A stretch of 64,000 nucleotides of DNA. Origin: a candidate division FCPU426 bacterium. GTDB taxonomy: Bacteria > Oederibacteriota > PGYV01 > Palsa-1178. A program made the position numbers and the translations under genes. A model generated the notes under the pieces. The model searched no databases, was not told where the DNA came from, and was given only the letters and a program-made list of their open reading frames with translations. Shown in pieces: positions 4,727-62,763 of this stretch. Numbering within the stretch: the stretch's first letter is position 1; each line of letters starts with the position of its first letter. The stretch spans positions 992,099-1,056,098 of the forward strand of contig CAWIXE010000002.1 of assembly GCA_963840035.1 (NCBI GenBank), given 5' to 3'.

Positions 4727-4782
4727 ATAAACACCTCTCCCTTTTTTTATATATTAACATGAAAAACGGGGGGTGTAAAGAC

Positions 4783-4856
4783 CATTGACAATTGTTGATT
4801 GACGATTGACAATTAATTACTACAACAATCAAAAAAGCAATTGTCAATTGTCAATT
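4783..4856. promoter_or_regulatory. cluster of ATTGACAATT direct and inverted repeats (candidate operator/hairpin) between PilZ gene stop and TPR-protein gene start
   Basis: 'cattgacaattg', 'gattgacgattgacaatt' and inverted 'caattgtcaattgtcaatt' within 75 bp. Confidence 0.35.
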
Positions 4857-5264
4857 ACTTTCTGGATTTAACAAATAATTCCACACCGACTCAAACTGGT
4901 TCTTGAAATATGCCTCCATGTAACGCCTTTCTTCTTCAGTCATTGCCGCGAATTCGAGGCCTATGCTGTACTGCATGCTTTCTTCGCCAAGGAATATGTG
5001 CCCGTTCCACACTACCTCGCAAACCGCGTGTATTTCCTTTCCGTCAAGGATAAAATCCACCCTTAATATGTCGCCGGGCTGGAACTTGTCATAGGTAAGG
5101 ATGCCTATGCCGCCTTCCGAGATATCATGGCCTTTGGCTTTTACAAACTGTTCATGTTCGACCGCTTCAGCGCCCATCCTTAAGATTTTGTATTTAACAT
5201 CCCTGTTCATCGGAAGCCTTTGCGCCTTTCTTCTCTCTTTTAACATAAGGTCCATAGAATCCAC
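4851..5264 (-). CDS. PilZ domain protein (c-di-GMP receptor-like)
   Basis: 'RRKAQR' (RxxxR) and 'DISEGGIGI' (DxSxxG) PilZ signature motifs. Confidence 0.7.
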   Translation of the reverse strand: MDSMDLMLKERRKAQRLPMNRDVKYKILRMGAEAVEHEQFVKAKGHDISEGGIGILTYDKFQPGDILRVDFILDGKEIHAVCEVVWNGHIFLGEESMQYSIGLEFAAMTEEERRYMEAYFKNQFESVWNYLLNPESN

Positions 5265-5271
5265 CTCCCTG

Positions 5272-7197
5272 CTATTTTAGGATTACCATCTTTTTTGTTA
5301 TCGTTTTACCCTGCGCCGATACCTTTATCAGGTACACGCCGCTTGCGGCTTTCATTCCGCGCTCATTGTCAAGGTTCCATACAACTTCGTTAATCCCCGG
5401 CCGGGTGGCCGCGGCTGTAAGGGTTTTAGCCCAGACCGGCTTATTATTGATATCGGTAATCAACATACCCGCCTCACAGCTTTCCTTTAGGGGGAACCTT
5501 ATCGTTGTAAAATCCCGGCACGGGTTTGGATAGTTATAAGTCTCTGCCGGGTCAAGGGTCTCATAACGAGATTCAACAACTATTGGCGCCGGATTTTTAT
5601 CCGCAAGGACAAAAACCCTAGCGCATTTCTTGCGGGTGTCAATGGCATACTCAACGCCGCATTTCCCGCAGTAAATAATGACACCTTCCGGGAAACCCCT
5701 GGTTAAGAACAACCTGAATAAATTGTCGGCAATTACGCCAAAGTTGGACTTATTGCATCCTTTTTCAGCCATATTGAATTCGCATGATTTTATGGCATGG
5801 CCCTTTGACGGCAGTTCTATATAAATCTTTTCAAGCTTTGTAAAATGGTCATGGGACATCCTGAACCTGAAAACATGCATGCATTTAACTGCTGTCGTTG
5901 CCGGAGTTATTTCGGTTGTGGGCACTTGTGTAGGCATCACGGTTGCCGTCTCTTTAATTATTACAACCACTGTCGCTGTTTCAGTTGGTGTTTGTGTAAA
6001 TGTTTCTGTATCAACAGGCGTTTCAGTAAACGTTTCAGTATTGGTTGGCGTTTCAGTAAACGTTTCAGTATTGGTTGGCGTTTCAGTAAACGTTTCAGTA
6101 TTGGTTGGCGTTTCAGTGAAGATTTCAGTATTGGTTTGTGTTTCAGTGAAAGTCTCAGTATCAGCAGGAGTCTCCGTGAACGTCTCCGTGGCTGTAAATG
6201 TTTCCACAGGCAGCTGCGTCGGTTCTTCAATACGCAGTTCAAAAACAGCTACGCCTTCAGGATAGTTAAACTGCCCCGGCAACGGGCCCTTTACAGCCCC
6301 GAAACTCTTTTCAAACAGTCCATCGGAATTAAATTTCTGTACCCTGTTATTGCCGGCGTCAGCCACATATACATAACCCTCTGAATCCACTGATATGCCG
6401 TATATGTCGCCAAACTGCCCCGCAGCCGCGCCTTTGCTTCCCCATTTTAATTCAAACGCGCCCTCGCGCGAGAACCTCTGCACCCTGTAATTATTCGCGT
6501 CAGCCACATATACCCTGCCGCTGCTGTCGATTGCGGCGGCGCGCGGGTAATTGAACTTGCCTTCCGCCGACCCTATTCCGCCGATTATCTGAAGCGCGTT
6601 GCCGAACGCGTCAAGTTTTTTAACCCTGTTATTTAAAGTATCACATACATATATCAGTCCTGTAACGGTGTCAACTGCCACACCCTGGGGGTTATTGTAG
6701 TCCATGATACCGCTGCCGGCCTTTGTTGAGCCAAAAGTCATAGCCCATGTACCGTCAGCGTTTAAGACCTGTATTCTGTTGTTTCCGGTGTCAGCCACTA
6801 CCACGCGTTCAAGCCCGTCAGTGACTATAACTGCAATGCTGTTCGGGCTGGAAAAACCGCCATTAAGCTTGCTGCTTGCCGGCCCGCCCCAGGTCCCGCG
6901 CCAGTTTCCTGAAGTGTCAAATACCTGCAGCCTGTTATTACCCGTATCAGCTACATATATAAGGCCGCTTGCCATTCCTGCCGCAATGGAACCCGGATAA
7001 CTAAACTGGCTTACCCCGCTGCCTTTTGAGCCCCATGACATAATAACATTGCCGTCAAAATCCATTGATTGGATCCTGTAATTTGAGGTATCAGAGATGA
7101 ATATCGAGCGGATTGTCTGGGCTTGTGTATTATTTGCCAGGAGTAAAAGTACTGTAAGGCTGGTCAGCGTTTGTAGGAGTGATTTTTCTGTTTTCAT
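5272..7197 (-). CDS. secreted NHL-repeat protein with Thr-rich tandem-repeat linker and T9SS-type (Por/FlgD-Ig-like) C-terminal domain
   Basis: Start set at MKTEKS (RBS AAGGAGGTG upstream); repeated 'YVADTGNNRLQVF'-type NHL blades; 'TNTETFTETP' repeats; C-terminus 'NYPNPCRDFTTIRF...GVYLIKV...KKMVILK'. Confidence 0.7.
   Translation of the reverse strand: MKTEKSLLQTLTSLTVLLLLANNTQAQTIRSIFISDTSNYRIQSMDFDGNVIMSWGSKGSGVSQFSYPGSIAAGMASGLIYVADTGNNRLQVFDTSGNWRGTWGGPASSKLNGGFSSPNSIAVIVTDGLERVVVADTGNNRIQVLNADGTWAMTFGSTKAGSGIMDYNNPQGVAVDTVTGLIYVCDTLNNRVKKLDAFGNALQIIGGIGSAEGKFNYPRAAAIDSSGRVYVADANNYRVQRFSREGAFELKWGSKGAAAGQFGDIYGISVDSEGYVYVADAGNNRVQKFNSDGLFEKSFGAVKGPLPGQFNYPEGVAVFELRIEEPTQLPVETFTATETFTETPADTETFTETQTNTEIFTETPTNTETFTETPTNTETFTETPTNTETFTETPVDTETFTQTPTETATVVVIIKETATVMPTQVPTTEITPATTAVKCMHVFRFRMSHDHFTKLEKIYIELPSKGHAIKSCEFNMAEKGCNKSNFGVIADNLFRLFLTRGFPEGVIIYCGKCGVEYAIDTRKKCARVFVLADKNPAPIVVESRYETLDPAETYNYPNPCRDFTTIRFPLKESCEAGMLITDINNKPVWAKTLTAAATRPGINEVVWNLDNERGMKAASGVYLIKVSAQGKTITKKMVILK
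6021..6140. repeat. 30-bp in-frame tandem repeat, 3 perfect + 1 degenerate copies, inside NHL-protein gene
   Basis: Unit 'tttcagtaaacgtttcagtattggttggcg' at 6021, 6051, 6081; degenerate copies flank. Confidence 0.85.
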
Positions 7198-7373
7198 GTC
7201 GCTCACCTCCTTCGCAGTTCCCCTCTCATTTGTAATATAGCTCACAAATGATTTTTTGTCAAGTATTATGTTAAGTATATTGTTAGTATTTAACTAAAGT
7301 GCACGAAAACGCCACTAAAATATGGTGAATTTTTGAAATATCGAATATTGTGTTTTTTGATTTTTTGCGTTTT

Positions 7374-9512: not shown

Positions 9513-9513
9513 A

Positions 9514-10152: not shown

Positions 10153-10331
10153 CATTTCTCCTTTTTCCCCAATAAAACAATTATATTTTATCACGTCTTA
10201 CATATATTAGTCAATTTTTAACCAAATTAGTTCCGTTTAAAAGCCCAATCGTAAATCAACAACAAACAACTTCGCAGCACTTATGCTTTTCCATTATATG
10301 CCCGCACAAGCAACAAAATAGTCAGGTTTTC

Positions 10332-10395
10332 GTAGAGACACAGCTTGCTGTGTCTCGCCTTTCAACGTCTGAGACGCAGCAAGCTGCGTCTCTAC
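10332..10395. repeat. 64-bp GTAGAGA...TCTCTAC double-hairpin repeat, copy A
   Basis: 'gtagagacacagcttgctgtgtctcgcctttcaacgtctgagacgcagcaagctgcgtctctac'; two adjacent perfect hairpins; ~97% identical to copy B. Confidence 0.8.
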
Positions 10396-10450
10396 AAAAA
10401 TCCGACTCATCAAGTAGTTCTTAGAATTGCCGTATTACATTTAAAAGCAA

Positions 10451-31860: not shown

Positions 31861-31972
31861 ATATTTCCTCCTTTTTCCGGGCGTTCGCCCTGTGTTTTGT
31901 GCCTTCACTGAGGAAGACACCAACCCGGGAAAAAGGTTCCATAATAAAACGCATTATTTATAAGGCCATTTG

Positions 31973-35395: not shown

Positions 35396-37470
35396 CTACC
35401 TCACACACACCAGCTTCTCAAACCCCTGCGCCTTTTCCCCTGTCTCTATCTGCGCTGTGACCGAGTATATAAAAGTCCCTGAAGCTATGTGTCTTTTTGC
35501 CCTGTTTTTTCCGTCCCAGTGGAAGTTATTATGGCCGGCTTTCGCGTTTATGCCGCATTCTTCTATGACTATCTCGCCTGATACGGTAAACACCCTCACG
35601 CACACCTCAGCGTCCCTTGAAAGCCAGTAAACTATGTTTGTGTCCTCGGCAAAAGGGTCGTTATAATTGCCTTTTAGTATAAGCTGTAACCGCGGAGTTA
35701 CCGGGGTAACAGTTGCAGACGCCTGCGGTGTCGAAGTTACTGTGCGGGTCGGTGTTGCAGTAATTGTCTTTGTAAATGTCAATGTTGGTGTAATTGTCCT
35801 TGTTATTGTTTTTGTCGGGGTAAATGTCATGGTCTGAGTTTTTGTAATCGTATCTGAAACAGTCATTGTCGGCGTTATGCTGAAAGTTGTTGTCATGGTC
35901 TGCGACGGTGTCAGTGTTTGCGTGACAGAATTAGTCAGGGTGACTGTCCGGGTCGGCAGAAGCGTTTCTGTGTGTGTTACGGTATAACTCGGGGTCTCAG
36001 TCAAGGTATCCCCGGGCGTCTGCGTCTGTGTATAAGTCGGGGTCCTGGTAAAAGTCGGCGAATTCGGACTTGTTGCGGTCCTTGTCGCTGTTCTTGTTCC
36101 GGTCGGAGTGCGCGTTGGCGTTACTGTAGCGGTAGAAGTGGATACGAAATCCGTCATCCCTGACCCGCCCGGATAGCCATATCCATCCTGGTCGTCAAAA
36201 CCGTACACGTTGACGCCTATTGGAAGCGGTGAAATAATGTTGTGGCTCCCGACCCCGACGCTTACGCGCGTGGCCGAAAAACCGCTGGATGCAATAGAAA
36301 TAAAACTACCCGCAGGTATAACCGAACCGTCAACTGATAATAGCCCGGCTGCGGCGTCAGGGGCAGTGATATTTAAATAATTCGCAGAGAAACCGGATTG
36401 TGGCGTCCCAACAGTGTAATTATCCAGATACTGCTCGACAGGTTCTATAATCATCATGAACGGGTCGCCGGTTGTGGAATCAAACATGGTGCTGTTTGAA
36501 TACTGCATAACAAGCACCCGGTTGTTCGAAGTTATCATTCCCGCCCCGCTGATTAACGCCTCAAAAAACGCGCCTTTGACCATAGGCGACGGGTTTAAAA
36601 GAGCCCCGTCAAGGTACAGGTATGTGCCGTTTTGTGACGCCATAATTCTGTAGGTATCGGTCCCTGACCTTCCCGCAAGCGGAACGATAATAAATTGTTT
36701 CCCCCAGCTCGATGTCGGGGCAGCTGTTCCACAAGGTAATTGCAGTAGTTGGATGACACCGGGATATCCGCGCAGATATGGCCCCCGAAAACAGCAATAC
36801 GCCTGTCAGAATCCACGGTTGTTCCGGTTAAATCCTCACTGCCGGGATTGTCATCTCGCAGTAAATAGACCTGCCCTTTATTCAGAATTACGTCATACGG
36901 GACATTCTGGATCCTGCCGCCTATCGTGCAGTTAAGCCTGATTGTCACCGTGGTGTTATCTTCGACAGCCACTACGGCAAATTCACTTCCTACCGGGTTA
37001 TTTACGCCGCCGTTATTGAATGAAAGAATTATATGGTTGGTGCCAAGCGCTTCCACAGGAAGGCCCAAAAACGCGTCTGTAATGACAGGGCTGTGCGAAT
37101 AACCGTATACGGTTACCGGATCAGCCGAGGTTACATGTATACCCCTCACCGAAACAACGTCGCTGTCAAAAACGTCGCTGTTCCATGGCAGGTCCACATA
37201 GGTTATAGCGCCGGCAGTCACATTTACATTTTTGTTAAACGTCAGGACCGGCGATAAGGATATGGTCATGTTCACGGTTGCTGTCGTATTGGTCTGTGAA
37301 GTGATGAGTATTTGCTTTGCAGGCGATATTCCCGAACTGTAAGGCGAATAATATGACCCCGGGATGCAAATCCAGAAATCAGTCCCTTCGCTGGTGGGTG
37401 AAGAAAATGCATAAAACGGCATTATGAAAAGATATGCCATTACTGTCAAAACCTTAATTTTTAATTTCAT
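35396..37470 (-). pseudogene. frameshifted gene for secreted IgGFc-binding-like domain protein with Thr-rich linker and T9SS-type C-terminal domain
   Basis: ORFs 36595..37470 and 35396..36643 are one gene: the '...NYCNYLVEQLP' frame continues as 'PTSSWGKQFIIVPLAGRSGTDTYRIMASQNG...' in the next frame; shift at G4 run 36717..36720. Confidence 0.6.
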
Positions 37471-50634: not shown

Positions 50635-52293
50635 TTATCCCGAGTAAGGCAGGATCTGGATTTCGCCGTTTTTCTCGACAAAGGTAGCGTACTTTAACTC
50701 ATCCGATATGGTTCGCTGGACTTTGTTTATCACTATTTTTACGCCGGTGTAAATTATGCCCAGGCAGCTTACTTTGCCTCTTTTGGTTGTCGACATTTCC
50801 TTTGCTTTCGCGTCAAGCTTGGACTTTGTTTCTTCCCATTTTTTCTGGTCGGTCATGAGCTTAAACTGCGTCCTGGTAAGTTTCGCGAGCATATCGCGTT
50901 TGTCGGGAGGCAATGCCCCGCCGGCTTTCGCGCTTAAGTCTTTAAGGAATATTATCCCTTTTTTTGTCTTATCAAGCTGTTCCTCGATATTTTTCAGTTC
51001 AGTGACCGCTTTATTCATCTCTTCCCTCATCTTGGGGGTTTCGCCGATGGATATTTCAGTCGGGGTCGCCATTTTCGCGCCCATTTCCTTCGCTGATACT
51101 TCGTGAGCGGCAGCGATCGTCCCGCCTACAAGCAGGCCTTTGGCACCCTGGACAAGTATTTTCTCGCCGGATATAAGCGTGGAATGCATGGCCGCTTCGT
51201 TGACAATGATTGATTTTTCAGTTTCAACATTGGAGTTCCTGATGTATTTCGCGGTTACTTCCCCGCCGGCAGTCACTTTTGCCTTAACTATGCCGCCCTT
51301 AACAGAAACCTTTCCTCCGCATATAAGCGTCGAGGAATCGGCTACATCGTCAATGATAATATCCTCGCCTGCTTTTATCGTGAATTCGCCGACACTTCCG
51401 TGGACTATTACGGTCCCCACGAAGTCAATATTGCCGATGGATAAATTAACATCGCCCTGTATTTCATATACTTCAAGAACTTCAAGTTTGTTGTTTTTAT
51501 AAACTACCTGTCCGTCATTTGCCGCTACAAAGAGTTCCGGGTTTCCTACGGCAGGTTCAACGCCTTTTCCAAATACAAACTTAACATCAGCGCCGGATGA
51601 AGCGGGTATTTCCTCGCCGGTAACGGTCATTCCGTTAATACCGTTCGTCGGGGATACTTTTCTCGCGAGAGCCTCGCCTTTTTTAACATTCTGAATCGAT
51701 TTCACATTTTTATAATCAACTTTATCCTGATCCGCGCCTTCGGCGGCGGCGGCTTCGTTCATGGAAGTGTCTGACTGGAAAAGAAGCTCAAGTTTTGCGT
51801 CCTCGCCGTTAACCATGGAGGTGCCTTCGGCAACAATGTCCTCAATTGATTCCAGCAATATGGTGGGATCCATCCTGGCTTCAAGTCCTCTTTTTACAAG
51901 CGCCTGAATAATATTTTCTTTGAGGCCGAAAACCACTCCATTTTCAGTAAGCGCGGCTTTGGCTGTCTCGAGTGTTATATCCTTGCCGTTACCCTGCGGG
52001 GGAACGATGGTTAACATAGCCGACATTTTTTCGCTGTCAACTTTTACAAAAATCTGCCCGTCCTTTACGCTTACCTGTTCATGCACTATCAGGATCTGCT
52101 GACCGGTTGACTCGCGTACCGCCCTTTCAACCATGGTCCAGTCAACATCCTTGCCTTTATAGGCGTCCTTTTCAAGCTCGGATTTAACAACTGAAAGGTC
52201 GACTTTTTTCCCTTTGCCTTTTGGCGGGAAAACCGTCAGATAAAGCCCGTCTTCTTCCGTACTAATTGTAGGATAACCGTCCATGTCGACCAT
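50635..52293 (-). CDS. flagellar assembly protein FapA (DUF342 family)
   Basis: 552 aa; beta-helix-like Gly/Val/Ile repeat region; C-terminal coiled coil; adjacent to fliA. Confidence 0.65.
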   Translation of the reverse strand: MVDMDGYPTISTEEDGLYLTVFPPKGKGKKVDLSVVKSELEKDAYKGKDVDWTMVERAVRESTGQQILIVHEQVSVKDGQIFVKVDSEKMSAMLTIVPPQGNGKDITLETAKAALTENGVVFGLKENIIQALVKRGLEARMDPTILLESIEDIVAEGTSMVNGEDAKLELLFQSDTSMNEAAAAEGADQDKVDYKNVKSIQNVKKGEALARKVSPTNGINGMTVTGEEIPASSGADVKFVFGKGVEPAVGNPELFVAANDGQVVYKNNKLEVLEVYEIQGDVNLSIGNIDFVGTVIVHGSVGEFTIKAGEDIIIDDVADSSTLICGGKVSVKGGIVKAKVTAGGEVTAKYIRNSNVETEKSIIVNEAAMHSTLISGEKILVQGAKGLLVGGTIAAAHEVSAKEMGAKMATPTEISIGETPKMREEMNKAVTELKNIEEQLDKTKKGIIFLKDLSAKAGGALPPDKRDMLAKLTRTQFKLMTDQKKWEETKSKLDAKAKEMSTTKRGKVSCLGIIYTGVKIVINKVQRTISDELKYATFVEKNGEIQILPYSG

Positions 52294-52297
52294 TATG

Positions 52298-53068
52298 TCA
52301 CCTCTCCCGTTCCAGTTTCCTGAAACCGCTCCTCAGTTTTATAATCAGTTTTGTATGTATCTGACACACCCTAGATTCAGACACATTCATCGCCATCCCT
52401 ATTTCCTTAAGCGTCAAACCATCCCAGTAATACATCTCAAGCATGGCTCTTTCTTCGTTATCAAACTTTTCTATGATTTCAGCGAGGTGGCTGACAGCTT
52501 CTTTTTTCTCAAATTTCTCGAGTGTGCTGTCACTTTCGCCCATTATGTCTTCAAAATAGAAAGAATCCCCATCGCTGCTAAGGATTTCACTGTCCATAGA
52601 TATAAGAGAAATCCCTTTCATTTTATCGAGTATAACATAAAACTCTTCCTTTGTCATCCTCATTTCTTTCATAATTTCCTCATCATTTGCGGGCCTTCCA
52701 TACTCCGATTCAAAGCGTATATAGGCCTGTTCCAGCTTTTTTATCTGTTCCCTGACGTTCTTTGGAAGCAGATCCTCCTTGCGCAGCGCGTCAATTATGG
52801 CGCCCCTAACCCTTTTTGACGCGAATGTCTCGAATTTGACGTTTTTTTCAAGGTCAAATTTGTCAATGGATTCCATGAGGCCTATTATGCCTTCAATATA
52901 AAGGTCTTCCTTGTCGTTTGAGCGTACTTCCTGCGGAAGGTGTGAGGCTATCCTGTCAGTCATGTATTTAACAAGGGGCATGTAGTTTTTTACAAGCAAT
53001 TCCCTGTCTTTATCATTTTTATTCCTGACGTACCTTTTCCACAACTCGTCCGCATTGATATTGTCCAT
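52298..53068 (-). CDS. fliA: RNA polymerase sigma factor for flagellar operon (sigma-28)
   Basis: sigma-70 regions 2, 3, 4; 'LTLKEIGMAMNVSESRVCQIHTKLIIKLR' region-4 HTH. Confidence 0.9.
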   Translation of the reverse strand: MDNINADELWKRYVRNKNDKDRELLVKNYMPLVKYMTDRIASHLPQEVRSNDKEDLYIEGIIGLMESIDKFDLEKNVKFETFASKRVRGAIIDALRKEDLLPKNVREQIKKLEQAYIRFESEYGRPANDEEIMKEMRMTKEEFYVILDKMKGISLISMDSEILSSDGDSFYFEDIMGESDSTLEKFEKKEAVSHLAEIIEKFDNEERAMLEMYYWDGLTLKEIGMAMNVSESRVCQIHTKLIIKLRSGFRKLERER

Positions 53069-53073
53069 AGCCC

Positions 53074-53427
53074 CTATTTTCCGTAAATATCATCAAATAA
53101 ATCGTCATCCACTTTGGTAACAATGTCTAATTTCTTTCCTTTTATCGGATCGCTTTTCTTTAAACCCGCCGGTTTTTCCGCCGGCATGTTTTTTTTATCA
53201 GCTGTAAATTCTTTAACGGCAGTTTCCGGGCCGTTTTTACCGGCGAAAACCAGCTTTAAGGAATAGAAAACAGCGATAAAAACAATTACTCCTGTTATTA
53301 CCGCGGATAAGACTATTTTAATGATATCCGCGTCATTTACATTTATAAGCCCGCCGATAAAAAAGCCCAATACCCCGGCTAAGATAGCGGCTTCAGCGTA
53401 TGTTTTATTATCAGTTTGTCCGCTCAT
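53074..53427 (-). CDS. hypothetical small membrane protein
   Basis: 117 aa, two hydrophobic helices; overlaps PilZ gene by 4 nt. Confidence 0.4.
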   Translation of the reverse strand: MSGQTDNKTYAEAAILAGVLGFFIGGLINVNDADIIKIVLSAVITGVIVFIAVFYSLKLVFAGKNGPETAVKEFTADKKNMPAEKPAGLKKSDPIKGKKLDIVTKVDDDLFDDIYGK

Positions 53428-53792
53428 TTTTTCTTGTTGGGTTTGGCTTTTACGCCTTCCCTGAGTATGTATTTGATCAGCCTGTCCTGGTCCGGGCCTT
53501 CCAGGTCCTTGAATTTGATAACAGCCTCAAACTGGCCGCCCGATATTTCCTTCATGCCGATTATGGTTCCTGCTGTATCTATCGGCTTTTCCCCGGGAAG
53601 CTTTACCGCTATTTCAAGCAGCGTCCCTTTTTCTATCTTCTTAGGGACAAACATGGTCATGCCGTTCCCGCTTATAGTGTCGGTAAACGATGTATTCGGG
53701 GCTATAGCGGTGCTTGCGAACCTTTCTATTATTACCTTATACTCGATCTCAACCCTTTTCTGAAGCCTTACGTGATCCCTTCTTTCAGCCAT
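53424..53792 (-). CDS. PilZ domain protein in flagellar operon (YcgR/MotI-like c-di-GMP receptor)
   Basis: 'RRDHVR' (RxxxR) and 'DTISGNG' (DxSxxG). Confidence 0.7.
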   Translation of the reverse strand: MAERRDHVRLQKRVEIEYKVIIERFASTAIAPNTSFTDTISGNGMTMFVPKKIEKGTLLEIAVKLPGEKPIDTAGTIIGMKEISGGQFEAVIKFKDLEGPDQDRLIKYILREGVKAKPNKKK

Positions 53793-53809
53793 ATTGCACC
53801 CCCTTTATT

Positions 53810-54766
53810 TCATTTGAATAATTCAAATATTCTTTTAAAGACATTTCCCGCAGCCGCGTTCTTTAAGGCGCCCGCGCTGCCGGCTTCCCTTGTCATGCGC
53901 TGTGATATTTTCGCTGCTATTTCCTTTATGCATTCAGACGCCCTGGAATTCGGATGGAGCACCGTGTAGGGACGCTGGGCCATTACGCTTGAAAGCACAT
54001 TTTTATCCCTGTAAATAAAGCCATATGATTCCACAAAGGTATTTAGAAAGCGGCGGGCTAAAAGCACCACCCTTGACGCGATTTCCTTTGCCTCTTCCTT
54101 TGAATTAACCATGTTTACTATGAGCTTAAGGGGCACTGTTGATTTATTCATGGATGATACTTTTATAAGACCATAAGCATCCATTAACGCCGTAGGTTCC
54201 GGAGTGGTGACTACGATGGAATAATCAGAGGCGTATATGAAGCTCATTGTGTTTCTGCTTATGCCGGCTCCCGTGTCTATGAGCAGTACATCCACCATAT
54301 CCTCAAGCTCAGATATCTTTTCAATAAATTCAGAACGCTGCTGATTGCTTAAGTTGACAAGCTCCTTAACACCCGATCCGCTGGCAATTACCTTAATGCC
54401 GTACTCTGTCTCAGTTATTATATCCTTAATGTCCTTTTCCCCGCGCAGGACATGCACCAGGTTATATTTGGGGTTAATACCGAGCAATATGTCAATATTC
54501 GCAAGGCCTAAATCCGCGTCCAGTATCATTACGCGGTTTCCCATCTTGGATAGTTCAAGCGCCACGTTAACCGTAAAATTAGACTTGCCAACCCCGCCTT
54601 TTCCGCTGGCAACGGCTATGACCTTGGTTGTGGGCCTTGCTTCATGCGAATCAACTATCTCCTCGCCTGTCTCGGGGTCAATTTCTCCGCCGCCTTCAGG
54701 GGATGCGTTCATTGATTCCTGTTTTCTGGATTTTACGAGTTCCCTTAGCCTCTCTGCCTGATCCAT
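53810..54766 (-). CDS. flhG: flagellar number regulator FlhG (MinD-like ATPase)
   Basis: Deviant Walker A 'VIAVASGKGGVGKSNFTVNVA'; follows flhF. Confidence 0.85.
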   Translation of the reverse strand: MDQAERLRELVKSRKQESMNASPEGGGEIDPETGEEIVDSHEARPTTKVIAVASGKGGVGKSNFTVNVALELSKMGNRVMILDADLGLANIDILLGINPKYNLVHVLRGEKDIKDIITETEYGIKVIASGSGVKELVNLSNQQRSEFIEKISELEDMVDVLLIDTGAGISRNTMSFIYASDYSIVVTTPEPTALMDAYGLIKVSSMNKSTVPLKLIVNMVNSKEEAKEIASRVVLLARRFLNTFVESYGFIYRDKNVLSSVMAQRPYTVLHPNSRASECIKEIAAKISQRMTREAGSAGALKNAAAGNVFKRIFELFK

Positions 54767-55989
54767 GTTTCAAAATCTCCTTTGATGACAAGTCTGGATA
54801 TTACTTTTGGGTCCGCGATTTCAAGGTCATCCGGCACTGTCTGCCCGACCGTTAAAAATGATACCGGGATACCGCCTGAACCAACTGAAAGGTTAAGGAG
54901 CATTCCGTAGTTTTTGGTCTCGTCAAGTTTGGTAAAAAGCATCCTGTGTATGGGGACCATACCAAAATTATTAATAACGCTTAAAGCGTCATAATACTTT
55001 GTCATGGCGCTGATGACTATATGTGTTTCAATAGGGGAATGCACTTCAAGGAATTCCTTGAGTTCCGCCAGATGCTGCCTGTTCCTGGGGCTCCTGCCTG
55101 CCGTGTCAAAAAATATGAGATCCTTATCCATGTGCTTGTTAATTACCTTTTTAAAATCAGAAGGCGTCAGTACAATTTCCACCGGAATCCCCATTATCTC
55201 GCCGTATTTCTTAAGCTGCAGGTCCGCCGCTATCCTGTAAGTATCCGCCGTAACCATCACGACGCTTTTGCCTTCTATGAGCGCGTACTTCGCTGCCAGT
55301 TTGGCTATGGTGGTTGTTTTTCCTACGCCCGTGGGGCCTATGAATGCCACTACTTTAGAGCTTCCCGGCGTTGTTTTAATCGGCCCGGATACCTGCACCA
55401 TGTTCGCTATATAATCAAGAAGGTATTGCTCCATGAAGACTTTATTATTTATCTGAGTATCATTTAACTGCGCGTTTATATTCTGAAGCGTGCGGTATAC
55501 AAGGCTTTCCTCAACTCCGTTCTCAATTAACATTTTCTGTATGCGTCCTATACCCTGTTTTAAACTCACGGCAGGCTGCATGGAAGACATTGTCTCGCGC
55601 TGAGGACGCATGGCTGAATTTAAAGCCACTTTGCCTTCACTTAATTCCCTGGCAAGGGCTTCATTTTTCATGGAAATATCTTCAACCCGGTTATATACGG
55701 GCTGCATGGGTTCAAGACGCGGCTGGATATGATGCTGCTGGGATGATTTTTGTTGCTGATTATTTTGCTGCGGTGAATACCGCTGGGGTTCATTCATTGA
55801 CTGGCGGGGTTTCTCGACATTGATGTCTATTCCAGCGGTTACTTCAGTCATTTCCCTTCCAAAAAGCCCGAACACCCCGCCTTTTTTATACTTTTTCGTA
55901 TGAAGTATGACAGCTTCCGGGCCGAAATCCCTCTTAACTTTGGCGAGCGCTTCCTGGAGTGTGTCTGCCTCGTATTTTTTGATCCTCAT
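54745..55989 (-). CDS. flhF: flagellar biosynthesis GTPase FlhF
   Basis: SRP-type GTPase 'VVAFIGPTGVGKTTTIAKLAA', 'DTAGR'; follows flhA. Confidence 0.85.
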   Translation of the reverse strand: MRIKKYEADTLQEALAKVKRDFGPEAVILHTKKYKKGGVFGLFGREMTEVTAGIDINVEKPRQSMNEPQRYSPQQNNQQQKSSQQHHIQPRLEPMQPVYNRVEDISMKNEALARELSEGKVALNSAMRPQRETMSSMQPAVSLKQGIGRIQKMLIENGVEESLVYRTLQNINAQLNDTQINNKVFMEQYLLDYIANMVQVSGPIKTTPGSSKVVAFIGPTGVGKTTTIAKLAAKYALIEGKSVVMVTADTYRIAADLQLKKYGEIMGIPVEIVLTPSDFKKVINKHMDKDLIFFDTAGRSPRNRQHLAELKEFLEVHSPIETHIVISAMTKYYDALSVINNFGMVPIHRMLFTKLDETKNYGMLLNLSVGSGGIPVSFLTVGQTVPDDLEIADPKVISRLVIKGDFETWIRQRG

Positions 55990-58085
55990 ATATCAACTTT
56001 CACCGTCCCTACAGCGCGGACCTCAACTTTAGGAAGGATCTCGTTGTATGAAAGAACGGCAAGATTTGGCAGTATCTTCTCCGCGATTTTCCTGAAATAA
56101 CTTCTGATAATAGGCGAGCAGAGTATGACCGGGTCATATTCAGTGCTGGCGCTTTTTCTGTATTCCTGGATTAAGCTGTTATATATCATCTGGATAACCC
56201 TTGGTTCAAGTCCGATAATACCCGGCCTGTCGGATGCCCTGACAGAATCAACTATCTTCTGCTCAAGCCCCGAATCAAGTGTTATGGCGTACATAATGCC
56301 GTTCTTGGTATGCTTGCTTGTGAACTGCCGCGCCATACCCTGCCTTACAAACTCCGTTAACAGGTCTGTTTCTTTTGTGGTTTTCGCGTAGTCAGCAAGT
56401 ATTTCAAATATGGAAACAAGGTCCCTGATGGAAACTTTTTCCCTTAATAAATTCTGCAGTACTTTCTGGACATCGCCCAGCGAAAGCGCGCCCGGGACAA
56501 GCTCGTCTACAACAGCCGGATTGTTCTTTCTGACTACTTCCACGAGTTTCTGGACATCCTGCCTTGTTAAAAGCTCGTCAGAATGTGTCTTAATGATCTC
56601 TGATAAGTGCGTGGACATAACCGAAGGCACATCCACGACAGTATAGCCTTTCATTTCAGCTTTTTTCTTTTCATCCTCTTTAATCCACTTTGCCGGCAGG
56701 TTAAATGCCGGGTCTTTGCCGGCCACGCCGTCTAAATCAGAACCGTCAGATCCTGGCTTCATGGCAAGGTAATAACCTATCTCAACCTTGCCTGAGGATA
56801 CTTCAACACCCTTAATTTTAATTGAATATGAGTTCGACGGCAGCTGCATGTTGTCCCTGATCCTGATGGGCGGCACCACAAGCCCCAGGTCAATGGCTAT
56901 CTGTTTGCGGAGCATTGTCACCCTGTCCAGAAGATCCCCGCCCTGTGATGGGTCTACAAGCGGTATGAGGGCAAAACCTATCTCAAGCTCCATGGTATCA
57001 ACCTGTATAAGCGGCATGACATTCTCAGGCTCGCGCTTGACTTCTTCCTTGTCTTTTTTAACGGCTTCTTCTTCCTCTGTTTTCTTGACAGCCAGGTTCA
57101 GCGTATACGCCAGTATCCAGGCAGCGATGGCGATTATGAAGAATAATACTTTAACCAGCGGCGACGGAAATACAACGCCCAGAAGGAAGAGCACAATTCC
57201 CACAATGCTGATGGCCCTTGGTTGCCCGAGCATTTCTTCCGCAAAATCCTGCCCGAGATTGGCTTCAGAGGCAGCCCTGGTTACTATAATACCTGTTCCG
57301 ACCGATAATAAAAGCGCGGGTATCTGTGTAACAAGGCCTTCGCCGATGGTCAGTATGGTGTATGTTATGGCTGCTTTTGAAAGTGAGAAGCCGTGGAACA
57401 TTATTCCTATGAAGAATCCCGCTACGATGTTAATGATAACAATAACTATGGCGGCTATCGCGTCTCCGCGCACAAATTTTGAGGCACCGTCCATGGCGCC
57501 GTAGAAGTCAGCTTCCTTTTCTATAGACCTGCGCCTTGCCCTTGCCTGTTCATCTGTTATAAGGCCTGCGTTTAAGTCAGCGTCTATGGACATCTGTTTG
57601 CCCGGCATGGCGTCCAAAGTAAAACGCGCCGCCACTTCGGCGACTCGCTGCGCGCCGGAAGTGATTACGACAAACTGGACAAGAATTATAATGGCGAAAA
57701 TAACGAGACCTACCACCAGGCCGCTGAAATCCGCGGACCCTACGACAAAGTTCCCGAACGTTTCTATGACCTTACCCGCCTCAGCTTTGCTTAAAATTAA
57801 CCGGGTAGCGGATATGTTAAGGGCAAGCCTGAATACGGTTGTTATAAGAAGAAGCGTCGGGAAAGTGGAAAAGTGCAGAGGTTCCTGGGTATATACGGTA
57901 ACCAGAAGTATCAATAAAGCAAGGGCAATATTCAATGTAAGCAGTACATCAAGCAGCCATGTGGGCATGGGTACAACTATCATGAGTACTACAGCTATAA
58001 TAGCCATAACTATGACAAGGTCTACCGACCTTCTCATAGCAAATGCAAGGCCGGCTTTGTTATTGTCCGCGGCTCCGTTTGCCAT
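55986..58085 (-). CDS. flhA: flagellar export apparatus protein FlhA
   Basis: 699 aa; conserved N-terminal TM region 'FRLALNISATRLIL...' and cytoplasmic domain. Confidence 0.95.
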   Translation of the reverse strand: MANGAADNNKAGLAFAMRRSVDLVIVMAIIAVVLMIVVPMPTWLLDVLLTLNIALALLILLVTVYTQEPLHFSTFPTLLLITTVFRLALNISATRLILSKAEAGKVIETFGNFVVGSADFSGLVVGLVIFAIIILVQFVVITSGAQRVAEVAARFTLDAMPGKQMSIDADLNAGLITDEQARARRRSIEKEADFYGAMDGASKFVRGDAIAAIVIVIINIVAGFFIGIMFHGFSLSKAAITYTILTIGEGLVTQIPALLLSVGTGIIVTRAASEANLGQDFAEEMLGQPRAISIVGIVLFLLGVVFPSPLVKVLFFIIAIAAWILAYTLNLAVKKTEEEEAVKKDKEEVKREPENVMPLIQVDTMELEIGFALIPLVDPSQGGDLLDRVTMLRKQIAIDLGLVVPPIRIRDNMQLPSNSYSIKIKGVEVSSGKVEIGYYLAMKPGSDGSDLDGVAGKDPAFNLPAKWIKEDEKKKAEMKGYTVVDVPSVMSTHLSEIIKTHSDELLTRQDVQKLVEVVRKNNPAVVDELVPGALSLGDVQKVLQNLLREKVSIRDLVSIFEILADYAKTTKETDLLTEFVRQGMARQFTSKHTKNGIMYAITLDSGLEQKIVDSVRASDRPGIIGLEPRVIQMIYNSLIQEYRKSASTEYDPVILCSPIIRSYFRKIAEKILPNLAVLSYNEILPKVEVRAVGTVKVDI

Positions 58086-58087
58086 AA

Positions 58088-59224
58088 CTAACTACCTCCG
58101 ATCTCCGGATTGGGTATATATTTATCAGCTAAAATACTATTATCCACTTTTTTCGTATTTTCTTCAAGTCTTATTTTTCCCTTTGCCTGATAGACAAAAG
58201 CCAGGATTTCAGCCACAGCCTGGAATAATTCGTTGGGTATTTCCCACCCTACTTCAAGCTTAACAAGCGCCCTTGCAAGCGGCGGATTAGGTACTATAAT
58301 AACCTGGTTTGCCCTGGCTATTTCCTTAACTTTTTCAGCCATCAGGTTTATGCCCTTTGCCACTACAGTCGGCGCGCCATCCACACCCTCTTTGTAGCGC
58401 AGGGCGACGGCAATGTGGGTCGGATTCGTTATTACCACGTCAGCCTGTGGGATTTCCGATATCATCCTCTTGCGGGCCAGCTCGCGCTGCACCTGCCTTA
58501 TCCTGGCTTTTATGATGGGGTCGCCCTCCATCTGCTTCATCTCGTCTTTTACTTCCTGCTTGGACATCTTAAGGTTGTCTTCAAACTCGTACTTCTGGAA
58601 AAGGTAATCCAGTATTGAAAATATGACAAAAGCCACAATAAGTTTCATCCCGAGCTTGTATACCGCCGCCGCGGAAAAAAGAAAGTATGTATTTACATCC
58701 ATGAGCGGCGTTAAAAATATGTCATCCAGGATCTTTTTAACCGCCGAATAAAATATGTATACTATAACCACAATCTTAACGACAGCTTTCACTATTTCAA
58801 AGATAATCCTCTTTGAAAGAAAGAGCCGCTGAAAACCCTTTGCCGGGTTTATTCTGTCGATACTCGGCTTCAAAGGCTCAAAAGAAACCATGAATCCTAC
58901 CTGCGCGACATTTGATATGACGCCCATTAAGAAAACCGCGGCAAGCAGGGGCAGGAGTATCATTATTAATTTGAGTATTATTTCCGTCGTAAACGGCATG
59001 ATCATATTCATGTCTATGGGGGTGCTAAGCACGCTGCTCCATATTTTTGCGGATACTTCCTTCATCTGATGAAAGATGTATTCTCCGGTTATCTTCAGTA
59101 TCAAAAAAGATACAAGCACGTTTAATACCGCGTTGATCTCCATAGATCTGGCAACCTGCCCCTTTTTTCTGGCTTCATCCTTGCGCTTTGGGGTGGCGTT
59201 CTCTGTTTTTCCGGGATCTGCCAT
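58088..59224 (-). CDS. flhB: flagellar export apparatus protein FlhB
   Basis: 'NPTH' autocleavage motif ('VVITNPTHIAVALRY'). Confidence 0.95.
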   Translation of the reverse strand: MADPGKTENATPKRKDEARKKGQVARSMEINAVLNVLVSFLILKITGEYIFHQMKEVSAKIWSSVLSTPIDMNMIMPFTTEIILKLIMILLPLLAAVFLMGVISNVAQVGFMVSFEPLKPSIDRINPAKGFQRLFLSKRIIFEIVKAVVKIVVIVYIFYSAVKKILDDIFLTPLMDVNTYFLFSAAAVYKLGMKLIVAFVIFSILDYLFQKYEFEDNLKMSKQEVKDEMKQMEGDPIIKARIRQVQRELARKRMISEIPQADVVITNPTHIAVALRYKEGVDGAPTVVAKGINLMAEKVKEIARANQVIIVPNPPLARALVKLEVGWEIPNELFQAVAEILAFVYQAKGKIRLEENTKKVDNSILADKYIPNPEIGGS

Positions 59225-59225
59225 G

Positions 59226-60014
59226 TTAAACCCTCATGCTCTGTATAAGATAGTAAATATCATTCCACATGTCCGTCATAAGCGCGCTGAAGAGGTTTAC
59301 GATAATGGGCATTGATATCATGACAGCCACAAGGCCTACAAGTATGTTCAGCGGAAGGCCTACCATAAAAACATTCATCTGGGGTATGGTCCTGGCAATG
59401 AATCCCAGTGTTACGTTTGTCAAAAGCAGCGCCAGAGTGGCAGGTCCGGCAATCTTGAAGGCTATTATGAACATGTTATAAAACAGGTCAGCCAGTTTCG
59501 TTGTGGTTTCTTCCGATACGCCTACTTTTAAAAGCGGCACAATCCTAAAACTGTCAACCATAGCCTGAAAAAGGACGTGGTGGCCGTTTATTGTCAGGAA
59601 AATAAGCACCCCGAGAATAAACTGGAACTGGCCGATGATTGATACCTGCGTATTTGACATCGGATCAATAACATTTACGATGCCAAACCCCATCTGAAGG
59701 TCAATGATCTGCCCTGAAAGCTGTATGGCTATGAAGACCATATAGGTTGAAAACCCGAGTATGACCCCAAGTATTATTTGGTTAAGCACAAGCAGTCCGT
59801 ATGACATCGTATTTGTAGGCAGAACCAAGTTATGGTCAAGAACCGGATACAGTATGAAAGCGACTAAAAAAGCGAACCCTATTTTGACTATCACGGGTAT
59901 GTTTCTGCTTCCGATTATAGGCGCTGTCATGAAGATCGAAGTAACCCTGACAAATACGAGCAGAAAAATCTGAAGCTGGTTTAATGCCATATTGAGAAGG
60001 TCTGTATACTGCAT
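59226..60014 (-). CDS. fliR: flagellar export apparatus protein FliR
   Basis: 262 aa polytopic membrane protein, position after fliQ. Confidence 0.85.
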   Translation of the reverse strand: MQYTDLLNMALNQLQIFLLVFVRVTSIFMTAPIIGSRNIPVIVKIGFAFLVAFILYPVLDHNLVLPTNTMSYGLLVLNQIILGVILGFSTYMVFIAIQLSGQIIDLQMGFGIVNVIDPMSNTQVSIIGQFQFILGVLIFLTINGHHVLFQAMVDSFRIVPLLKVGVSEETTTKLADLFYNMFIIAFKIAGPATLALLLTNVTLGFIARTIPQMNVFMVGLPLNILVGLVAVMISMPIIVNLFSALMTDMWNDIYYLIQSMRV

Positions 60015-60018
60015 GGCC

Positions 60019-60291
60019 TTACATTTTCATGTATTCGGGCAGGTTTAAGAAAAGCGTGGTGGTGAAGTTAATGAGTATCCTTAAAATCCAGGGCCCGAAA
60101 ACGATGACTGTCAGCATCACAACTATTATTTTTGGCACAAAAGTAAGTGTCATTTCCTGTATCTGAGTCACAGCCTGGAAAATGCTTATGATAACACCGA
60201 TTAAAAGGGCAAACCCTAAAAGCGGGGCGGATACTATAAGGGTAACAAGGAGCGCTTCCCTTCCTAAGTTAGTTACAAATTCAATGCTCAT
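60019..60291 (-). CDS. fliQ: flagellar export apparatus protein FliQ
   Basis: 90 aa, two TM helices, 'QAVTQIQEMTLTFVPKI'. Confidence 0.9.
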   Translation of the reverse strand: MSIEFVTNLGREALLVTLIVSAPLLGFALLIGVIISIFQAVTQIQEMTLTFVPKIIVVMLTVIVFGPWILRILINFTTTLFLNLPEYMKM

Positions 60292-60362
60292 TCTGCACCT
60301 TTTGTTTCTATGATTTATGACACAATTTGTAATTTGTCATTGGTAATTAGTAATTAAGCCCT

Positions 60363-61124
60363 CTAAAAGCTTACTATTAAAGCCCTCGCGATAAGATGCC
60401 AGCCGTCTACAAGTATGAAAAGCAGTATTTTAAACGGCAATGAAATCATTACGGGCGGCAACATCATCATACCCATGGACATTAAGACGCTTGCCACCAC
60501 CATGTCTATAATCAGGAATGGTATGTATATCATGAAACCAACTGTAAACGCGGTCTTTAATTCGCTTATGATAAATGCCGGTATGAGTACGGTAGTCGGG
60601 ACTCCGTCCTGATTTTTCGGACGGGCTGTTTTTGACAGGAATATAAAAAGCGCAAGGTCCTTTTCCCTTGTCTGTTTGAACATAAAAAGCCTTAAAGGCT
60701 TTACAGCCGCTTTCATGGAATCATCTATGGTTATTTTATTGTCAACATACGGTTTCCAGGCCTTGTCATATATTTCCTGCCCCGTAGGCATCATAATAAA
60801 AAATGTCATAAAAAGCGCGAGCCCTATAAGAATCTGGTTCGGCGGTATCTGCTGGCTTCCAAGCGCCTGCCTTAGGAATGATAGCACAATGACGATCCTT
60901 GTAAAAGAAGTCATGAGCATCAGTATGGCCGGGGCCATGGTTAAAATGGTCAAAAGAAGTATTATCTGTATGGAAGCCGCCACGTCTTTCGGGGTATTCG
61001 CGTTGGTAACGCTTATCCCTATCTTCGGTATGGTTATCTCGGCAAAAACGCTGCTGAAGGCAAACACGCACATCATCAGCACCGAAACAGCTATGATACT
61101 TTTTTTGATCCACTTGGATTTCAT
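60363..61124 (-). CDS. fliP: flagellar export apparatus protein FliP
   Basis: 'MTSFTRIVIVLSFLRQALG...IPPNQILIGLALFMTFFIMMP' FliP signature. Confidence 0.9.
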   Translation of the reverse strand: MKSKWIKKSIIAVSVLMMCVFAFSSVFAEITIPKIGISVTNANTPKDVAASIQIILLLTILTMAPAILMLMTSFTRIVIVLSFLRQALGSQQIPPNQILIGLALFMTFFIMMPTGQEIYDKAWKPYVDNKITIDDSMKAAVKPLRLFMFKQTREKDLALFIFLSKTARPKNQDGVPTTVLIPAFIISELKTAFTVGFMIYIPFLIIDMVVASVLMSMGMMMLPPVMISLPFKILLFILVDGWHLIARALIVSF

Positions 61125-61749
61125 TTGGGCCCGTCCTTTTTCCTGAATTTATCCACTATATTTTTAATGACCACGTTGCCGCCGTCCACAAGTTTCTTCC
61201 CCTGTTTAAGATAGGTGGCTTTTAACTCTTCGTCAAACTTGCTTTCAGCCTTAAGCCTGTATTTGGATATGTACTCATTTGCCTGCTCTTTAATTTTAAT
61301 GATTGTTTCAGGGTCAGTAACTTCGGTGATGGTATTTAATCCGCTGGATGACGAACCCACGAGCATTATCTTGCCGGCAAACTCCACGACATAGAGCAGG
61401 TTCTTGCTGTCGAGGTATTCTTTTGCCAGGACCGTGACGACATTCTCGCTGCGCATCGGTATGGATGCCTTGACATAAAAGTATTTAATGGCTGCCATAA
61501 TTATATATATCAGGATAATTATGATTATTAACGAACCAATGAGGCTTATTACCGTGGATAAAACGCTGTTGGAAGGGATAGCCCTCGGGTATTCTATGTC
61601 CTTATAGGCATTTGACAGATATCCGGAATCCTTCTGCGCCGTATTTACAGCAGTATTGCTTACGGACGCAGTGGATTTATCTGCCGCGGCGCATAATAGT
61701 AGCGGTGCTAAAAAAAAAGAAACGCTGCGGTTATAATATTCTTTTTCAT
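61121..61749 (-). CDS. fliO: flagellar protein FliO/FliZ, interrupted by a frameshift in a 9-nt homopolymer
   Basis: ATG at 61749 sits 3 nt after the fliY stop; reads MKKNIITAAFLFF then TAG, while the +1 frame runs stop-free into the 61121..61498 ORF through a TM helix (VISLIGSLIIIIILIYII); A9/T9 tract at 61710..61718. Confidence 0.55.
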
Positions 61750-61752
61750 TAT

Positions 61753-62706
61753 TTATATCTTCGGTATTCTGTCCGCCGGCCTGACGATATCAGTGATCCT
61801 GATACCAAAGTTTTCGTCTATGACTACGACTTCGCCTTTGGCTATGTACTTCTGGTTGACAAGGATGTCAACCGGTTCGCCAGCGAGCTTATCGAGTTCG
61901 ATAACCGATCCCGGGGAGAGTTCAAGCACGTCACGGACAAGTTTTTCTGTCCTTCCGAGCTCTACTGTTACCTGCAGCGGAACGTCCATGACGATGTCAA
62001 GGCTGCGGTCATAAACTGAACCTACCGCGCGTTCCGGCTGTAATTCAGATGTTGATATATTCTGTGCTGTTGCGGCTTTCTGCATTTTTTTCCCTCCGCC
62101 TCCCGTGATATCTCCTACAAAGCCTTCTGTCGAGGCTTCTGCTTTTTTACCTGACTTTATAGCCGATGCTACTTCGCCCGAAAATATAAGGGCAAGCTTG
62201 CCCGGATTAAATTCGCCGATGTTAAGGTCCGCGTCAACAACAAGCACTTCCCCGTCTATGCCGGGTATCGAACCTGAACCAAGGTCAATAACACTGACTT
62301 CTGAAGGATTAGACATCAATCCCTGGCCTATCTGCGACGCTACTGAACTGATAATCGCGTCATTTACCTGGTTTGCAAGCTCTGTTACCGCGCTCAAATG
62401 AAGGTCTTCGAGGGCAGCGGGAGGATTTGATCCGTCCTGGCCTATCATGAGGTCTGCCATTATAGCGGCCTGCTCCTCTGATACTATCAACGCGACATTT
62501 CCCATGCCGTCGCCAAGTTCTATGGGAACAACAAGGTTCCTGCCCGGCATCATTGAAGCGACTGATCCCGAGTCTGTTTCCTCAACCGAACTCATGGAAA
62601 CAGAAGTAGCTTTCCCGAGCAGTTCGGATAACATCTTTTCCCCGTTTGGTATGGCATTACCTAATATCTCTGCTGCGTTATTTTTTTCTTTGTCATTTAA
62701 GGCCAA
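61753..62706 (-). CDS. fliY: flagellar motor switch protein FliY (CheC-like domain + FliN domain)
   Basis: C-terminal FliN region 'DVPLQVTVELGRTEKLVRDVLELSPGSVIELDK'; N-terminal CheC-like region. Confidence 0.85.
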   Translation of the reverse strand: MALNDKEKNNAAEILGNAIPNGEKMLSELLGKATSVSMSSVEETDSGSVASMMPGRNLVVPIELGDGMGNVALIVSEEQAAIMADLMIGQDGSNPPAALEDLHLSAVTELANQVNDAIISSVASQIGQGLMSNPSEVSVIDLGSGSIPGIDGEVLVVDADLNIGEFNPGKLALIFSGEVASAIKSGKKAEASTEGFVGDITGGGGKKMQKAATAQNISTSELQPERAVGSVYDRSLDIVMDVPLQVTVELGRTEKLVRDVLELSPGSVIELDKLAGEPVDILVNQKYIAKGEVVVIDENFGIRITDIVRPADRIPKI

Positions 62707-62763
62707 TTTCGCACCTCCGAAAGTTATTTTGACTTAACCGAGAATTTCTTCTCGTAAGATGTA

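Follow-up and report, generated by a model that had tools for sequence, protein, structure and literature searches.

A 64,000-nucleotide stretch of contig CAWIXE010000002.1 (assembly GCA_963840035.1, positions 992,099 to 1,056,098; hereafter the window) carries two genes, termed A and B, that code for modular and putatively Sec-exported proteins, each consisting of an unrelated passenger, a Thr-rich spacer and an immunoglobulin (Ig)-like C-terminal domain, or tail, of ~95 amino acids (aa). Judged from its sequence, the tail of protein A is clearly a bona fide TIGR04183-class type A sorting domain of type IX secretion systems (T9SS), and that of protein B is a borderline relative. The host, flagellated to judge from its genes, belongs by PheT comparison to the candidate phylum Goldbacteria (Goldiibacteriota). 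With a confidence only a little above even, we propose that the tail directs outer-membrane sorting or surface display via a T9SS-like route, possibly using a PorV-family fusion protein found in relatives. The features of gene A and its product are as follows.

5272..7197, minus strand: protein A gene (open reading frame list; Pfam NHL and TIGR04183 matches; layout kept in six relatives)
7117..7197, minus strand: putative Sec signal peptide of protein A, MKTEKSLLQTLTSLTVLLLLANNTQAQ, read from the translation
6232..7116, minus strand: NHL-repeat beta-propeller, the passenger domain of protein A (Pfam)
5902..6231, minus strand: Thr/Glu/Pro-rich linker of protein A with TETFTETPTNTE repeats (translation)
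5560..5901, minus strand: Cys-containing middle domain of protein A, which aligns across seven sequences (protein A and six relatives)
5275..5559, minus strand: C-terminal sorting-type domain of protein A, 95 aa (TIGR04183, AF2, Foldseek)
7234..7262, minus strand: sigma-70-like promoter match TTGACA-17-TATATT, 11/12 positions, a consensus match only

Protein A scored 39.1 bits against TIGR04183 (T9SS type A sorting domain, curated cutoff 23 bits) as a whole protein and 36.3 bits as an isolated tail, and thus passed the cutoff, whereas the tail stayed slightly below the Pfam cutoffs of PF18962 (26.0 vs 27) and FlgD_ig (25.7 vs 27). The tail reads YPNPC ... SGVYLIKV ... KKMVILK, with the last motif at the very end of the protein; Pfam matches to protein A end at residue 655 of 657 in the numbering of the open reading frame (ORF), and those of a custom hidden Markov model (HMM) reach the last residue in both A and B. 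When the six-frame translation of the window (465 segments of at least 50 aa) was scanned, the tail profile matched only ORFs A and B, with the next best segment at E = 0.032, indicating that the tail matches are not due to chance. The AlphaFold2 (AF2) model of the tail, based on a 13-sequence alignment, has a predicted local distance difference test score (pLDDT) of 93.6 and shows seven beta-strands in an Ig-like sandwich, and T9SS C-terminal domains of solved structure have been characterised as 3+4 beta-sandwiches of strands beta1-beta7 (PMC11285876). The top Foldseek matches in the PDB were the C-terminal domain of PorU (6za2, query TM-score (TMq) 0.70) and PorZ (5m11, 0.68), followed among T9SS tails by the C-terminal domains of mirolase and RgpB, with FlgD structures ranking lower. 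Taken feature by feature, the tail shares with the T9SS type A tail (TIGR04183/PF18962, as in RgpB, PorU, PorZ and Flavobacterium johnsoniae cargo) its size of ~80-95 aa and position at the extreme C-terminus, the seven-strand Ig-like sandwich, a PNPF-like start, a late-strand G-x-Y and a K/R-rich basic last strand, and it likewise sits on Sec-exported (here putatively so) modular proteins with varied passengers. It differs in its host, as the system has been characterised in the FCB group (Bacteroidota, Chlorobiota, Fibrobacterota and allies), to which Goldbacteria do not belong, and in its scores, which for protein B and some of its subfamily do not reach the family threshold; in addition, no translocon, motor or sortase gene was found among the ORFs searched.

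The FlgD and T9SS tail families overlap in sequence. The tail profile matched the C-terminal domain of Porphyromonas gingivalis PorU end to end (E 4.4e-7, profile positions 6-94) and FlgD (7eh9) at E 1.5e-7 over the central strands only (positions 23-84). The original prediction had set a plain Ig-like or FlgD fold against a T9SS tail, an opposition that is not a clean one because the two families overlap in this way. In the main rival explanation, the tail has a structural role only, as an FlgD-like Ig domain that serves for example as stalk, adhesion module or envelope anchor, Goldbacteria have no T9SS, the proteins cross, or stay at, the outer membrane in some other way, and the TIGR04183 match reflects common fold ancestry, not common function. 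The match to FlgD, as strong as that to PorU, speaks for this explanation, which we take as a serious possibility but rate well below even. What separates the two families is found at the ends of the domain: the likeness to the FlgD hook cap is confined to its Ig-like domain (PF13860), whose central strands are similar in sequence and fold (Foldseek TMq 0.6-0.7), and the match omits the first and last strands, in which PNPF and KK-x-V-x-K agree with T9SS tails and not with FlgD. Goldbacteria-type tails have retained an N-terminal PNP[FC] motif and, at the terminus, KK-x-[VI]-x-[KR], which argues against a purely structural domain. We attribute the likeness of the tail to FlgD to a common Ig-like fold and not to any part in the assembly of flagella.

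Upstream of the tail, the architecture of protein A is that of a putatively secreted protein. The gene lies within one ORF (5272..7245, minus strand) of 657 aa with a GTG start in its longer form; the start is most likely the ATG at 7197, for a protein of 641 aa, and the promoter-like TTGACA-17-TATATT is located inside the longer ORF and upstream of this ATG. In translation, the N-termini of both A and B read as signal peptides, with a basic start, a hydrophobic core and a putative cleavage site of AQA followed by Q or AFS followed by S. The passenger of protein A was matched by Pfam NHL in five stretches (E 1.8e-39) and also by the DUF5128 6-bladed propeller and SGL models, and the Cys-containing middle domain had no match in Pfam or NCBIfam. 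Within the linker, Tandem Repeats Finder detected a 30-bp tandem repeat at 6017-6161 (4.8 copies, 93% identity), which codes for the TETFTETPTN units; as orthologues differ in linker length, the linker may vary through repeat slippage.

The second locus had been described as one protein ending in the same kind of domain. The coding sequence turned out to be broken, and its tail is more divergent than that of protein A.

35396..37470, minus strand: protein B locus, frameshifted (two ORFs with a split IgGFc_binding domain; 691 aa when repaired)
36717..36720, minus strand: frameshift site of gene B, a C4 homopolymer with one base apparently missing (sequence)
35399..35683, minus strand: C-terminal domain of protein B (sub-threshold HMM matches, AF2, Foldseek)

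The locus consists of two overlapping ORFs, 36595-37470 and 35396-36643, between which the Pfam IgGFc_binding domain is split into profile positions 1-127 and 147-297, respectively. The addition of one C to the C4 run restores a single 691-aa frame, reading ...EQLPPTSSWGKQFIIVPLAGRSGTDTYRIMASQNG..., in which a putative signal peptide is followed by the IgGFc_binding domain, a linker rich in Thr and the divergent C-terminal domain. Two intact relatives of protein B, of 679 aa and 706 aa, are both encoded in one related locus (L083), and the break in gene B represents either a pseudogene or an assembly or sequencing error.

The tail of protein B, with the motifs NYNDPF ... SGTFIYSV ... EKLVCVR (the last at the end of the protein), is 24% identical to that of protein A and falls under all curated cutoffs (TIGR04183, 14.1 bits, E 0.035; FlgD_ig, 25.1 vs 27; CHU_C, 15.4). 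Because it failed the TIGR04183 cutoff, we filed protein B as a divergent relative and not as a family member by the curated rule. The PorU model nevertheless matched the tail with its C-terminal region (E 1.8e-9), and the tail reached 45 bits with an HMM made from tails of the protein A type, from which A and B themselves had been left out. The ending ...KL[IV]CVR is common to protein B and the L083 proteins, the latter of which retain a canonical PNPF; one of these two intact relatives passes TIGR04183 with 24.9 bits, and the other was not listed at E <= 0.01. The AF2 model (pLDDT 84.1) contains six clear strands, and its Foldseek matches are divided, with the best E-value for FlgD (3osv, 4.5e-5, 78 columns) and the best TM-score and coverage for PorU (6za2, TMq 0.76, 101 columns). 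We place this tail, as a borderline case, in the same tail superfamily, as a divergent member belonging to a ...KL[IV]CVR subfamily. The T9SS likeness claimed by the original prediction for both tails therefore holds for protein A, by TIGR04183 score and PorU/PorZ fold, and holds in part for protein B; in the HMM comparison that it had proposed, A passes TIGR04183 and remains under FlgD_ig, and B fails both.

The tail behaves as a modular C-terminal tag. It is attached to unrelated passengers, namely NHL and IgGFc_binding domains in the window and CBM_3 domains and PQQ propellers in another locus (L096), and about 19 of the 22 listed matches that cover the final strand end at the C-terminus of the protein. 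A search of 1.84 billion protein cluster representatives with the tail profile returned 347,038 matches at E <= 1e-3 and 121,785 at E <= 1e-10. Close tails in Poribacteria and other non-Bacteroidota bins carry the NCBI name 'T9SS type A sorting domain-containing protein', and JGI names such tails 'flagellar hook assembly protein FlgD'. The domain is clearly very widespread and already annotated automatically, beyond the classical T9SS hosts. Protein A itself is a real but ordinary member of this known family, and an orthologue, MCX8093047.1 from the metagenome-assembled genome GCA_026414685.1, is already named 'T9SS type A sorting domain-containing protein [Candidatus Goldbacteria bacterium]' by NCBI. 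In L096, which lies on a 908-kb contig from ENA/NCBI, the tail-bearing proteins with CBM_3 and PQQ-propeller passengers form a cluster (3895-10444). There, two ORFs of 147 aa that contain nothing but a tail each overlap the 3' end of the gene before them and, like gene B, look frameshifted or mis-called.

The assignment of the host is derived from PheT, for which a protein search recovered tight relatives at 48-72% identity, including Candidatus Goldiibacteriota bacterium HGW-Goldbacteria-1 and other named Goldbacteria; the nearest named relatives (52-58% identity) were all Candidatus Goldbacteria/Goldiibacteriota, and all others reached at most ~41%. Exact copies of PheT and of protein A are encoded on a 1,707,679-bp contig in NCBI and ENA. 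The comparison does not group the organism with the FCB lineages, and the NCBI taxonomy lists Goldbacteria under 'Bacteria candidate phyla', not under FCB. Doud et al. placed Goldbacteria beside Firestonebacteria and Elusimicrobia and reported flagellar genes in Goldbacteria, unlike those sister lineages (PMC7031533).

Within this lineage protein A is a conserved gene product, paired with a PilZ protein that binds cyclic di-GMP (c-di-GMP).

4851..5264, minus strand: PilZ-domain gene (Pfam PilZ, E 3.4e-11), starting 8 bases after the protein A stop

Full-length relatives of protein A at 35-41% identity share its entire multi-domain layout, and the orthologues in two of the related loci (L083 and L085) scored 45.5 and 36.8 bits against TIGR04183. 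An NHL-tail gene followed by the PilZ gene was observed in five loci on four other, independent contigs (L081, L082, L083/L084 and L085), drawn from NCBI, ENA and Logan. The shared neighbourhood comprises an ABC transporter, a TPR protein, UvrA and/or a TPR membrane protein, the NHL-tail gene and PilZ, and in the window gene A belongs to a housekeeping block of aminotransferase, folK, panBC, ABC transporter and UvrA genes, continuing to the NHL-tail gene and PilZ. The adjacency of the NHL-tail and PilZ genes in the window and in five related loci suggests that the two form a conserved operon, connecting a surface protein with c-di-GMP signalling.

The conserved setting also bears on the origin of the tail genes. 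As T9SS-type tails are typical of FCB genomes (PMC11205867), the genes might be foreign, introduced by a chimeric assembly or by recent horizontal insertion from an FCB bacterium; no result obtained here supports a foreign origin, and we strongly disfavour it. The GC content is flat across the window (0.44-0.48), the housekeeping block of gene A recurs in the same order on independent contigs, and the orthologues share the whole multi-domain layout. In particular, contamination is disfavoured because the gene A neighbourhood recurs in the five loci on four other contigs.

A candidate for a component that could handle such tails was found in relatives, in the form of a PorV-like fusion protein.

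L081 16104-18047; L082 9083-11074; also L086-L095: PorV-like fusion gene (NF033709; metagenome scan)

In L081 and L082, a 647-663-aa protein encoded ~4 kb downstream of the protein A orthologue passes NF033709 (PorV/PorQ family) with 132.5 and 142.9 bits at a cutoff of 90. It is composed of an N-terminal barrel of ~300 aa, two Ig-like domains and an OmpA_C peptidoglycan-binding domain. Searched against the PDB, the barrel profile had F. johnsoniae PorV (6h3i_F) as its sole significant match (E 1.4e-12), over nearly the whole chain. A metagenome scan with the barrel added ten further loci, so that the gene is kept in 12 loci in total, in a setting of SppA, a protein with a transmembrane (TM) region plus a TolB-like propeller, the PorV-like gene, IclR, a GH5 cellulase, tgt and yajC. 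Directly upstream of the PorV-like gene lie genes for two tail-bearing proteins in L089 and genes of the lipopolysaccharide core in L095. Compared with PorV (LptO), the outer-membrane shuttle of T9SS, the relatives' protein is alike in its ~300-aa N-terminal barrel (132-143 bits at the cutoff of 90); it differs in the fusion of the barrel to two Ig-like domains and OmpA_C, and in the location of the gene beside SppA, TolB-like, IclR, GH5 cellulase and tgt-yajC genes and not beside porU. To our knowledge, the combination of a PorV/PorQ barrel with two Ig-like domains and OmpA_C is not known among described T9SS components. Selected neighbours in the ten metagenome loci were DnaK, a PilB/GspE-type ATPase, MetG, Rho, WaaA and a heptosyltransferase, with no T9SS core gene among them, and a metagenome scan with the SppA of the window gave no confirmed relative. 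The TolB-like protein beside the PorV-like gene (789 aa) was considered as an analogue of PorZ and rejected, as it has no PorZ match, no tail and a multi-TM region at its N-terminus.

The T9SS-like sorting that we propose would proceed in three steps. The Sec system would export the protein into the periplasm; a T9SS-related outer-membrane pathway would then recognise the tail, with the PorV-family barrel as a possible receptor or shuttle; and the passenger would finally be shown on, or freed from, the cell surface, with the Thr-rich linker serving as a stalk. An extended version of this proposal, in which Goldbacteria are a flagellated non-FCB phylum with working T9SS-like sorting and the PorV-Ig-OmpA fusion recognises the tails together with a diverged T9SS core or an undescribed translocon, is tentative and in our estimate rather unlikely.

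Several observations weigh against T9SS-like sorting, and most of them also speak for a tail that is a structural Ig domain only. T9SS has been described as confined to FCB or Bacteroidota (PMC11205867, PMC10202324, PMC11611037), a restriction drawn in reviews (PMC11205867, PMC10202324), and our literature search found no paper linking Goldbacteria and T9SS. As the original prediction had noted, no T9SS machinery family, including the core of PorK/L/M/N or GldK/L/M/N, SprA/Sov, PorT, PorV and PorU, is present in the window, as far as covered by 52 plausible ORFs of at least 137 aa searched with Pfam, 13 of them also with NCBIfam. Nor was a homologue of SprA, PorK-N or PorU noticed in related loci totalling ~230 kb, which were viewed through Pfam tables for eight loci and selected ORFs and form a small, non-random sample. 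The PorV-like protein passes a model that describes a broad subfamily and does not reach the cutoffs of the PorQ and PorV2 models, which are specific; its gene turned up in more distant relatives only (such as L081 and L082, whose protein A orthologues share 35-38% identity with the protein of the window) and neither in the window nor in the closer L083 and L085. The sub-threshold scores of the protein B tail, and the FlgD structure nearest to its model by E-value, point in the same direction, as does the JGI naming of such tails after FlgD. Finally, among the top profile matches are many giant proteins in which the domain core is repeated internally in tandem, up to 19 times, and for this reason the fold alone is no secretion signal. 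Against a purely structural role stand, besides the conserved end motifs and the restricted FlgD match, the nearly invariable position of the full-length tail form at the extreme C-terminus and the conservation of a PorV-family protein in the phylum.

For the window itself, the tail assignment amounts for the most part to a correct and routine domain call, and the added interest lies in a host phylum outside the documented T9SS range and in the PorV-OmpA fusion of its relatives. Syntenic type A-like tails together with a PorV-family barrel suggest either that T9SS or a relative of it reaches more widely among bacteria than described, or that TIGR04183 over-predicts 'T9SS cargo' beyond FCB. Either outcome is relevant to automated annotation, in view of the ~347,000 cluster representatives that match the tail profile, and to the question of how these cellulolytic candidate-phylum bacteria display their surface enzymes. 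If true, the extended proposal would widen the known host range of type IX-style secretion, and the fusion would be a naturally occurring variant of its shuttle component.

The same window contains a flagellar gene cluster, and the original prediction had stressed the combination of flagella and T9SS cargo signals as restricted to a few lineages.

50635..63786, minus strand: flagellar gene cluster (FliM, FliN/Y, a 125-aa ORF, FliP, FliQ, FliR, FlhB, FlhA, FlhF, FlhG, a FliA-like sigma factor and FapA)

The complete flagellar export core reported for the window was recovered, with FliP, FliQ, FliR, FlhB and FlhA all present; including a FliK-like protein, the flagellar genes span 46977-63786. 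Pfam matches comprised FHIPEP (E 3.8e-261), Bac_export_2, Bac_export_1, FliP, FliM and FliMN_C, and FliQ matched its PDB counterpart at E 5.8e-23. Several flagellated FCB lineages carry T9SS genes. The best-studied members of the FCB/Bacteroidota group glide and have no flagella. The co-occurrence of flagella and T9SS-type signals is genuine here without being the rare part of the finding, and the non-FCB Goldbacteria host is the more unusual one. Bacteroidetes proper are generally without flagella (PMC6767994).

Given this cluster, proteins A and B could be imagined as flagellar components, such as FlgD paralogues or hook- or rod-associated proteins, and the sub-threshold FlgD_ig scores of both tails together with weak matches to FlgD equivalog models speak for such a role. 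This explanation is effectively refuted by the domain architecture. In searches of Pfam and NCBIfam at E <= 1, A and B matched FlgD only over its Ig-like part and far below the equivalog cutoffs, and their passengers are an NHL propeller and an IgGFc_binding domain. Flagellar type III substrates are not known to carry Sec signal peptides, whereas both proteins begin with putative Sec-type signal peptides and are predicted to be Sec-dependent. Their genes lie outside the flagellar operon, ~43 kb (A) and ~13 kb (B) from the cluster and among unrelated genes. The flagellar genes are genuine neighbours that are mechanistically unrelated to the tails; they are context and not a sorting system.

Two further observations concern the flagellar region. 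FlhA (55986-58085) is at most ~53% identical to its relatives among the matches listed, which come from species-representative genomes, with the best ones scattered over Bacillota, Thermodesulfobacteriota, KSB1 and Fibrobacterota, a spread that gave no taxonomic placement. The 396-aa ORF 45469-46659, which follows just downstream of the FliK-like gene and has no Pfam match at E <= 0.001, was considered as FlgD and rejected in favour of an SBBP/delta-60 repeat propeller-like protein; it resembles Leptospira LipL53 family lipoproteins at E 3.1e-16, far below the cutoff of that model.

The other scanned ORFs of the window are mostly housekeeping genes, including those for lysine, pantothenate and folate synthesis, UvrA, PheT, release factor 2 (RF2) and an ABC transporter, and the window also codes for an extracytoplasmic function (ECF) sigma/anti-sigma pair and a VIT-VWA protein. 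The latter (29458-31923, 821 aa) scored 423.9 bits against the 'marine proteobacterial sortase target protein' model, the cutoff of which is 551.65, and no sortase was present among the window ORFs tested. Between PilZ and SppA, a 618-aa protein (2870-4726) combines an N-terminal TPR region with a C-terminal outer-membrane beta-barrel, and a counterpart at this place is missing from L081 and L082. It was rejected as a candidate of the PorV/PorP type, since it gave only generic OMP_b-brl and weak PopA-like matches and no match to the PorV family.

The RF2 gene (40883-42010, minus strand) contains the classic programmed +1 frameshift, with its site at 41936, where a short N-terminal ORF (MALEIKEIRSALSDIKQRASKIEVYL) stops at CTT TGA C and the PCRF/RF-1 body follows in the +1 frame. 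Nearly all genes in the window (1-64000) are located on the minus strand. In addition, the GC skew is negative in every 4-kb bin and the cumulative skew falls monotonically, which is consistent with a location of the whole window on a single replichore, with strong co-orientation of genes.

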